IMG/VR virus record: IMGVR_UViG_3300027805_000012
Span: 4,421-68,420 of that record
From: a virus
Length of the DNA: 64,000 nucleotides
Strand: one strand, 5' to 3'
Shown: positions 50,237 through 50,335 of the stretch, in pieces
Position numbering within the stretch: the stretch's first letter is position 1
Layout: every line of letters begins with the position of its first letter
Notes under the pieces: generated by a model
What the model saw: only the letters and a program-made list of their open reading frames with translations
Told to the model about the DNA's origin: nothing
The model's database searches: none
Program-made: the position numbers and the translations under genes

Positions 50237-50335
50237 GCAGCTGCTTCCTAGGTTCTGATGGTCGGAGCCGGTCTTTTGTGAAAGCGCAAAACACATGACC
50301 GGTAAGTAGAGGTTCGATTCCTCGCAGCTGCACCA
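50237..50335 (+). ncRNA. tRNA-like RNA with extended, anticodon-less arm
   Basis: gcagctg/cagctgc-A-CCA, GGTTCGATTCC T-arm; stem ccggtc/gaccgg capped by ttttgtg-aaag-cgcaaaa. Confidence 0.7.

Follow-up and report, generated by a model that had tools for sequence, protein, structure and literature searches.

A tRNA-framed gene with its anticodon loop closed by a 16-nt hairpin in the tRNA array of a large phage: a possible tRNA mimic

Large phages carry dozens of tRNA genes, which are usually explained as a supply of codon-reading capacity or as a way to make good the loss of host tRNAs to defence nucleases. Cleavage by host anticodon nucleases and repair by phage RNA ligases take place beside the wobble base, while the protein-spliced tRNA introns of archaea and eukaryotes are located at position 37/38 and are marked by a bulge-helix-bulge. 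Both tRNA mimics and insert-bearing tRNA genes of huge phages are already known: tRNA genes of Lak megaphages bear inserts referred to as 'enigmatic introns' (Devoto et al., 2019; PMC6784885), and YrlA, a Y RNA of bacteria and phages, is a tRNA mimic with a prolonged anticodon stem and no anticodon loop (10.1101/312249). In addition, 8/4 tRNAs function in translation and occur in phages (PMC5389517), and the bacterial Ro60 motif has been defined as GNCGAAN0-1G (PMC4201824). In the literature searched, no description was found of the plan reported here, which combines a free CCA end, a loop zipped by a 16-nt hairpin and an anticodon that is bulged.

The locus compared with these systems lies in a DNA stretch of 64,000 nt (the window; positions 4,421 to 68,420 of the IMG/VR virus record IMGVR_UViG_3300027805_000012). 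The source record has 69.8 kb and an estimated completeness of 19%, corresponding to a phage of approximately 360 kb, and the sequence occurs in public runs of freshwater and aquatic metagenomes and metatranscriptomes. The element occupies positions 50237-50335 on the plus strand and consists of a 99-nt tRNA frame ending in ACCA (Table 1). Our tentative interpretation, to which we assign a probability of roughly 0.45, is that it is the gene for a tRNA-derived, non-decoding RNA, i.e., a tRNA mimic, acting as a decoy or adapter. This interpretation is based on the helical state of U32 and U33, on the base-paired 5' border of any excision, on a body that has drifted while keeping perfect helices, on an architectural twin in the related phage G005, and on the spare insert-bearing copies of tRNA genes in the clade.

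Table 1. Features of the element, its counterparts in related phages and its genomic surroundings. Positions without a prefix refer to the window.
Feature	Position	Strand	Basis or remark
Acceptor 5' strand GCAGCUG and C8	50237..50244	+	7 bp with 50325-50331; fold
D region	50245..50267	+	D stem UUCC/GGAG of 3-4 bp and a loop of 13-15 nt that includes GG, or rival hairpin
Anticodon-stem 5' strand CCGGUC	50268..50273	+	Pairs with 50297-50302
Distal helix UUUUGUG/CGCAAAA, tetraloop AAAG (50281-50284)	50274..50291	+	Fold
3' bulge CACAU, 5 nt	50292..50296	+	Fold, excision comparison
Anticodon-stem 3' strand GACCGG	50297..50302	+	Fold
Variable region UAAGUA	50303..50308	+	Sequence; last A opposes G88 if the T stem has 5 bp
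T arm GAGG-UUCGAUU-CCUC, canonical T loop	50309..50323	+	Sequence, fold
G88, acceptor 3' strand CAGCUGC, discriminator A, encoded CCA	50324..50335	+	Sequence
Architectural twin, 122 nt	G005:C1:245312-245433 (L042:1501-1622)	-	Arm of 8+5 bp, GCAA loop, 3-nt 3' bulge GUG
tRNA-Asn(GUU), 32-nt insert right after U33	G005:C1:242225-242332 (L051:1726-1833)	-	Comparison with syntenic G010 ortholog
tRNA-Gly(GCC), 32-nt insert inside the anticodon	G010:C1:73301-73408 (L054:8302-8409)	-	Adjoins intact Gly(GCC)
tRNA array, 17 tRNAs	49647-52467		ARAGORN
Phage RNA ligase, Rnl-type (PF09414), 210 aa	44696-45328	+	93.8 bits
Phage Ro60 (TROVE and Ro60 vWA domains)	61679-63289	+	Domain matches

A first, sequence-only reading had described a tRNA body with normal acceptor, T-arm and ACCA whose anticodon stem (ccggtc/gaccgg) runs on into a further helix (ttttgtg-AAAG-cgcaaaa) with a 3' CACAT bulge, leaving no 7-nt anticodon loop. 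The tRNA-like ends and T-arm were borne out by reading the sequence at 50237-50335, the prolonged stem and its bulge were confirmed by sequence and folding together, and the loop is indeed replaced by a 13-bp helix with an AAAG cap and a 5-nt bulge. Compared with a standard 7-nt loop the insertion amounts to 16 nt, at about 50276-50291 within the distal helix, and the two final A residues of the insert are paired with U32 and U33, which turns the 6 bp of the anticodon stem and the 7 bp of the distal helix into one continuous anticodon helix. The CACAU bulge is likely the remnant of the anticodon together with positions 37-38 (C34 A35 C36 A37 U38). All helices are perfectly paired throughout, with one G.U among the 13 bp. 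In RNAfold the whole element reached -40.3 kcal/mol (z = -3.78; 1 of 200 shuffles was as stable), the drawn structure made up 81% of the ensemble of the 35-nt arm folded alone (z = -3.61), and pair probabilities were 0.89-0.95 in the distal helix and 0.99 in the core of the proximal stem.

The acceptor GCAGCUG/CAGCUGC is palindromic, and the 8-mer GCAGCUGC is a palindrome as well, so that an eighth acceptor pair, C8-G88, can form (P = 0.995) and a possible 8/4 layout results. Either in this layout or as 7/5 with an A.G mismatch, the acceptor/T-arm minihelix comprises 12 stacked pairs. The least tRNA-like part of the element is the D region, with C at position 8, a short stem, a long loop and a competing hairpin of 5-8 bp (50251-50269; GGUUCUGA-UGG-UCGGAGCC) that borrows the CC of the anticodon stem (50268-50269). 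Since only 7 of the 17 canonical array neighbours fold into a cloverleaf under the same test, thermodynamic prediction of the D stem is unreliable here, and the thermodynamic case against a D stem was dropped, as most canonical neighbours would fail it too. An intrinsic terminator composed of the D hairpin followed by GGUCUUUUGU was also rejected, given that the U run begins 4 nt past the stem; terminator-like sites in the region numbered 7, against 5.0 +/- 2.4 in shuffles, i.e., within expectation. No other copy of the insert was found in the window at up to 3 mismatches, and it is thus no repeat or mobile mini-element there.

No tRNA was called on the element by default ARAGORN or by Rfam at gathering thresholds (RF00005 included), the top Rfam match being tRNA-Sec (RF01852) at 20.7 bits, against a cut-off of 47. 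The acceptor stem, a T arm with a UUCRANY loop, the discriminator and the CCA of a canonical tRNA are present, and a 7-nt anticodon loop on a 5-bp stem is absent. The Rfam tRNA model gave 55 and 54.7 bits to the insert-bearing Asn and Gly genes of related phages and scored neither the element nor its G005 twin; considering that this model tolerates inserts in the anticodon loop, the element is not an ordinary tRNA with an insert. Its best identity to the approximately 220 canonical tRNAs of the clade was 0.75-0.76, which is the background level by estimate, and the best matches (Ile, Glu, Val-GAC and Leu) were rejected as parent tRNAs, all of them being at that estimated level. The tRNA-like domain of tmRNA was also discarded, because pair 3-70 is A-U and not G3.U70 and a tetraloop caps the helix after its 13 bp, and neither ARAGORN nor Rfam called a tmRNA on the element. 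Similarly, the insert has 16-18 nt, whereas a group I intron core has about 200 nt or more, and no group I family matched at gathering in the window.

Most genes of the surrounding array encode their CCA end and are separated by short A-rich spacers, and one such spacer directly follows the element, as it does the neighbouring tRNAs. Besides the element, several non-decoding tRNA-framed RNAs are present in the array. Two RNAs of the array, at 50660-50744 and 50924-51053, contain CGAA. The gene for the RNA ligase is 5 kb upstream of the array, with no polynucleotide kinase/phosphatase family recognised in the scanned ORFs adjoining it, and the Ro60 gene is 11 kb downstream of the element. A 131-kb ENA contig, reached by walking from the flanking protein at 47225-47950, is 100% identical over 12.6 kb around the element; it represents the same phage and thus yields no covariation. 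Moreover, contigs from two public runs showed zero differences (run X1, whole element; run X4, 5' 60 nt, to 50296), which together with the identical ENA contig excludes an assembly artefact. No second tRNA array was met on the ENA contig over approximately 18 kb further downstream, where PrkA/YeaH/SpoVR and structural genes were found instead; the genes for the PrkA kinase, DUF444 (YeaH-like) and the SpoVR homolog stand in a row at L063:10515-17031, downstream of the window, and the SpoVR gene is interrupted by an intein.

Some additional observations were made in the array. A homing-endonuclease-like ORF (phrog_314; 49038-49661, plus strand) has its 3' end within the first array tRNA (Trp, 49647-49721). 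The tRNA-Glu(UUC) just upstream of the element (50064-50138, plus strand) has the loop CCUUCAA, i.e., C33 and not the near-universal U33, and a second Glu(UUC) (51549-51622) has the normal loop CUUUCAC. Between the element and tRNA-Thr(GGU) there is a structured non-tRNA RNA of about 65 nt (50340-50408, plus strand), which is conserved in the closest relative, G009 (L043:9091-9167, minus strand), with the invariant core CGACAAAAUGG. Its GNRA-capped hairpin has two compensatory pairs (CCUC-GAAA-GAGG vs. CUCC-GCAA-GGAG), and its outer helix varies between the phages (CCGUGU/ACACGG vs. CCAUCGA/UCGAUGG).

Comparative evidence was sought in 11 related phage records gathered through Ro60 (65-87% identity) and a flanking protein, among them G005, a relative of 349.7 kb that is 97% complete. 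A single-sequence covariance model of the element (R1) detected only generic tRNA matches in these 11 records, at 29 bits or less. In IMG/VR, gapped IUPAC patterns of the arm and T arm recovered one unrelated tRNA-Gln or nothing, the D-region 19-mer had no match, and the T-arm 17-mer with CCA recovered the G005 twin and two odd tRNA-Tyr-like genes. The distal-hairpin pattern produced five chance matches in metagenome contigs, none with tRNA context, and megablast/blastn against isolate phages returned just 27-nt T-arm matches to Gordonia phage tRNA-Lys. In the closest relative, G009, whose Ro60 is 87% identical, the array is syntenic (His-Asn ... Thr-Asp), and at the corresponding site the block containing the element is absent, with one Gln-like tRNA and the conserved structured RNA in its place. 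As these searches gave no homolog, the element is an orphan without covariation or conservation of its own.

The fetched arrays were also scanned for acceptor and T-arm frames not called by ARAGORN, which provided three informative cases (Table 1). In the G005 twin the D arm is canonical, the variable region spans 36 nt, and the acceptor branch may be of the 8/4 type. Its T arm, AGAGGUUCGAUUCCUCG, equals that of the element over 17 nt, including the A and G flanking the 4-bp stem. Positions 32-38 and 33-37 of the twin are Watson-Crick paired, so that the would-be anticodon alone bulges. The best canonical identity of the element and its twin was 0.75-0.79, taken as background, compared with 0.82-0.86 for the insert-bearing Asn and Gly genes. 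The insert-bearing tRNA-Asn of G005 is syntenic to an uninterrupted tRNA-Asn of G010 (G010:C1:68254-68329), located between Leu-UAG and Ser-CGA, and three base pairs of the acceptor and anticodon stems are changed on both sides (compensatory) between these two genes. The insert-bearing tRNA-Gly of G010 shares 82% identity with the canonical Gly-GCC of G005. In all three insert cases an intact tRNA with the same anticodon exists in the same genome (His and Asn in G005, Gly in G010), and the interrupted copies are therefore spare.

Regarding the inserts themselves, the initial GAC of the tRNA-Asn insert can pair with the anticodon GUU and the stretch CACCGAAC within it resembles the bacterial Ro60 motif, while the loop of the tRNA-Gly insert contains AUCGAAG. 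Also noted were tRNA-like genes of 71-74 nt with the loop CUUCUAA (anticodon UCU), one in G003 (L058:7020-7090, plus strand) and two copies in G006 (L055, reverse strand), which have minimal or unusual D regions (CUGAUGGAUCG, CCGAUGGAUUUCGG) and are missed by default ARAGORN; the one in G003 was the best, yet weak, match of the element-based model (28.7 bits).

Second in rank comes the explanation that the element is a tRNA gene with a protein-spliced mini-intron, 16 nt long and beside the wobble base, whose halves would be rejoined, e.g., by the phage RNA ligase, to give an 8/4-type tRNA-Val(CAC or UAC) or, depending on the register, Glu(UUC), Gln(UUG) or Lys(UUU). We regard this as unlikely, even though the statement of the sequence-only reading that no simple excision restores a standard loop turned out to be wrong. 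Four 16-nt deletions and one 18-nt deletion do so, and default ARAGORN accepts every product as a tRNA: removal of element positions 40-55 gives UU-CAC-AU (Val), 41-56 gives UU-UAC-AU (Val), 42-57 gives UU-UUC-AU (Glu), 43-58 gives UU-UUG-AU (Gln) and the 18-nt removal of 43-60 gives CU-UUU-GG (Lys). In all five products U33 is kept and position 37 is a purine, relaxed ARAGORN reads the uncut gene as Val with a 16-nt intron, and an intron is thus compatible with the geometry, as excision restores the 7-nt loop. The identity elements recognised by ValRS are A35, C36 and A73, and A73/A35/C36 here agree with valine identity. Additionally, the window has Val(GAC) and no Val(CAC/UAC), both of which are carried by relatives; however, with about 19% of the genome in hand, the missing Val genes may sit in the rest of it. 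The RNA ligase gene 5 kb upstream, the published introns of Lak tRNA genes (PMC6784885) and the ability of 8/4 tRNAs, which occur in phages, to translate (PMC5389517) also favour splicing.

The features of the element itself argue in the opposite direction. There is no bulge-helix-bulge, the only bulge being on the 3' side and the 5' cut site being base-paired inside a continuous helix, and the sole register at 37/38 is the 18-nt Lys(UUU) deletion, which is the least plausible one. An insert of 16 nt is far below the size of a self-splicing intron, and, depending on the register, any of four amino acids could result. In a putative spliced product, a body of the 8/4 type with C8 and an unusual D region would bear an anticodon stem of 6 bp, and tRNA models give this body low scores. 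Neither RtcB (PF01139) nor a tRNA-splicing endonuclease (PF01974; EndA-type) was found in any of five phage records (this one, itself about 19% of its genome, and four relatives, one of them 97% complete), a search that covered phage records only. In the relatives, the analogous insert-bearing genes are redundant with intact isoacceptors.

The two RNA libraries that contain the array, the freshwater metatranscriptomes X1 and X2, are of a kind that seldom captures mature tRNAs, and the analysis covered their assembled contigs. A contig of run X1 (50178-50468) includes the element unspliced and with its flanks, and no joints were seen in contigs; the unspliced element is therefore present in an RNA library, although this contig may derive from DNA rather than from a transcript. 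The contigs of RNA run X2 end at 50231 and restart at 50348, a gap that carries no evidential weight, and runs X3 and X4 gave matches mainly to conserved tRNA-Ile of other organisms. Overall, the restorable loop, the fit to valine, the absence of Val(CAC/UAC) from the window, the phage ligase and the Lak precedent keep the mini-intron under consideration, and the sub-threshold body, the lack of a close canonical parent, the base-paired 5' cut, the missing enzymes and the unspliced contig leave it in second place.

A bolder version, which we hold to be quite improbable, is that giant bacterial phages possess their own protein-dependent splicing of hairpin inserts adjacent to the wobble base, with an 8/4-type tRNA-Val as the product in the present case. 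The insert would then keep the tRNA uncleavable or inactive until a nuclease of the phage or host removed it and an Rnl-type ligase rejoined the halves.

The element could also be a pseudogene, i.e., a tRNA gene killed by the chance insertion of a hairpin and drifting without function in an array of fast turnover, which appears rather improbable to us. Its status as an orphan keeps this explanation at that level: the element is absent from the syntenic site of the closest relative, the searches made returned no homolog, and the tRNA arrays of the clade are visibly reshuffled among relatives. Besides, the core breaks tRNA rules (C8, weak D stem), and the two extra pairs between the UU of the loop and the AA of the insert could be due to chance. 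However, all four helices are intact despite divergence to an estimated background similarity, the T loop, discriminator and CCA are perfect, the same architecture is found independently in G005, and the clade retains several insert-bearing tRNA frames with compensatory changes.

Least probable by our judgement is a Y RNA for the phage Ro60, in which the kinked anticodon helix would be the docking site and the element a circularly permuted equivalent of YrlA with open CCA ends, since, although Ro60 is encoded 11 kb downstream, the Ro60 module of YrlA extends from the equivalent of the anticodon stem in an RNA without an anticodon loop, and the 32-nt inserts of the relatives' Asn and Gly copies hold CGAA-type motifs, the extended helix contains neither GNCGAAN0-1G nor CGAA, the nearest stretch (GUCGGAG, in the D region, with one mismatch) is at about chance level for 99 nt, the acceptor is open and not closed, and no YrlA match (RF02553) overlaps 50237-50335 even at E <= 10.

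A tRNA mimic consequently remains our preferred reading, and a sequence of events can be proposed for it. Judging from its context, the element would be transcribed polycistronically like its array neighbours, with RNase P generating its 5' end and trimming exposing the encoded ACCA. A 16-nt hairpin inserted beside the wobble position closes the anticodon loop, and the CAC-A-U bulge is predicted to kink the resulting helix. Having no 7-nt anticodon loop, the RNA cannot read a codon, and it might serve to tie up or attract proteins that recognise either the top half of a tRNA or a bulged anticodon. As a decoy or adapter, it would belong to a tRNA-maintenance set of the phage that includes more than 17 tRNAs, Ro60, the RNA ligase and several other tRNA-framed RNAs, Ro60 docking being one possibility, unsupported by a sequence motif. 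The acceptor/T-arm minihelix is retained, with a canonical T loop and a free CCA end. In favour of the mimic are the stable extended helix without a 7-nt loop, the low score on a tRNA model that tolerates inserts, the lack of a close canonical parent, the recurrence of the design in relatives, the absence of splicing enzymes from the five phage records and of joints from the contigs, and the YrlA precedent, while the lack of an ortholog, the missing block in G009, the excisions that give ARAGORN-accepted tRNAs and the absent Ro60 motif count against it. As a speculation, the CAC-A of the bulge could be displayed as a His codon that kisses tRNA-His in the style of a T-box.

If the 99-nt RNA is stable, it would add a simple design to the known tRNA mimics and could help to identify the protein whose distraction or recruitment serves the phages. 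If it is spliced, it would represent a first step toward protein-dependent tRNA splicing in a bacterial virus, a question raised by the Lak introns. The insert-bearing family of the clade is of interest by itself; the weakness of the case is that the element is an orphan without comparative support.

Compared with the known systems, the element resembles the tRNA introns of archaea and eukaryotes in having a short insert in the anticodon loop and one register, the 18-nt Lys(UUU) deletion, at 37/38. It differs from them in its single, 3' bulge, in the absence of any splicing endonuclease or RtcB found in the phage lineage, and in the G37 that would follow the UUU anticodon in that register, which is atypical. 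With 8/4 tRNAs (allo-tRNAs and the 8/4 tRNA-His/-Ser of bacteria and phages; Mukai et al., 2017; PMC5389517) and with tRNA-Sec (RF01852), the element shares a possible 8-bp acceptor and 4-bp T stem, a 6-bp anticodon stem and a D hairpin with a long stem. In contrast, both a long variable arm and an anticodon loop are lacking, and the score stays at the 20.7 bits given above.

The Lak introns (Devoto et al., 2019; PMC6784885) are similar in that they occur in very large phages as short inserts in or near the anticodon loop, with a splicing mechanism that is not known, and in that they came to light when interrupted genes were compared with uninterrupted ones, the same pattern being present here in the tRNA-Asn of relatives. 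However, the predictions for the Lak phages were of normal, intron-containing tRNAs, and one of the inserts is itself tRNA-like, whereas in the element the 16-nt insert is fused into a continuous helix, the body is sub-threshold and the excision register is ambiguous. YrlA of bacteria and actinobacteriophages (RF02553; PMC4201824; 10.1101/312249) also has T- and D-arm features, no anticodon loop and a prolonged, kinked stem, and occurs in genomes that encode Ro60. In YrlA the acceptor is a closed stem-loop and the 5' and 3' ends lie in the Ro60-binding stem with GNCGAAN0-1G, whereas the ACCA end of the element is free, its distal helix is closed, and both the Ro60 motif and an RF02553 match are missing. 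Although membership in the class fails, YrlA is the known class that comes closest to the element in its logic.
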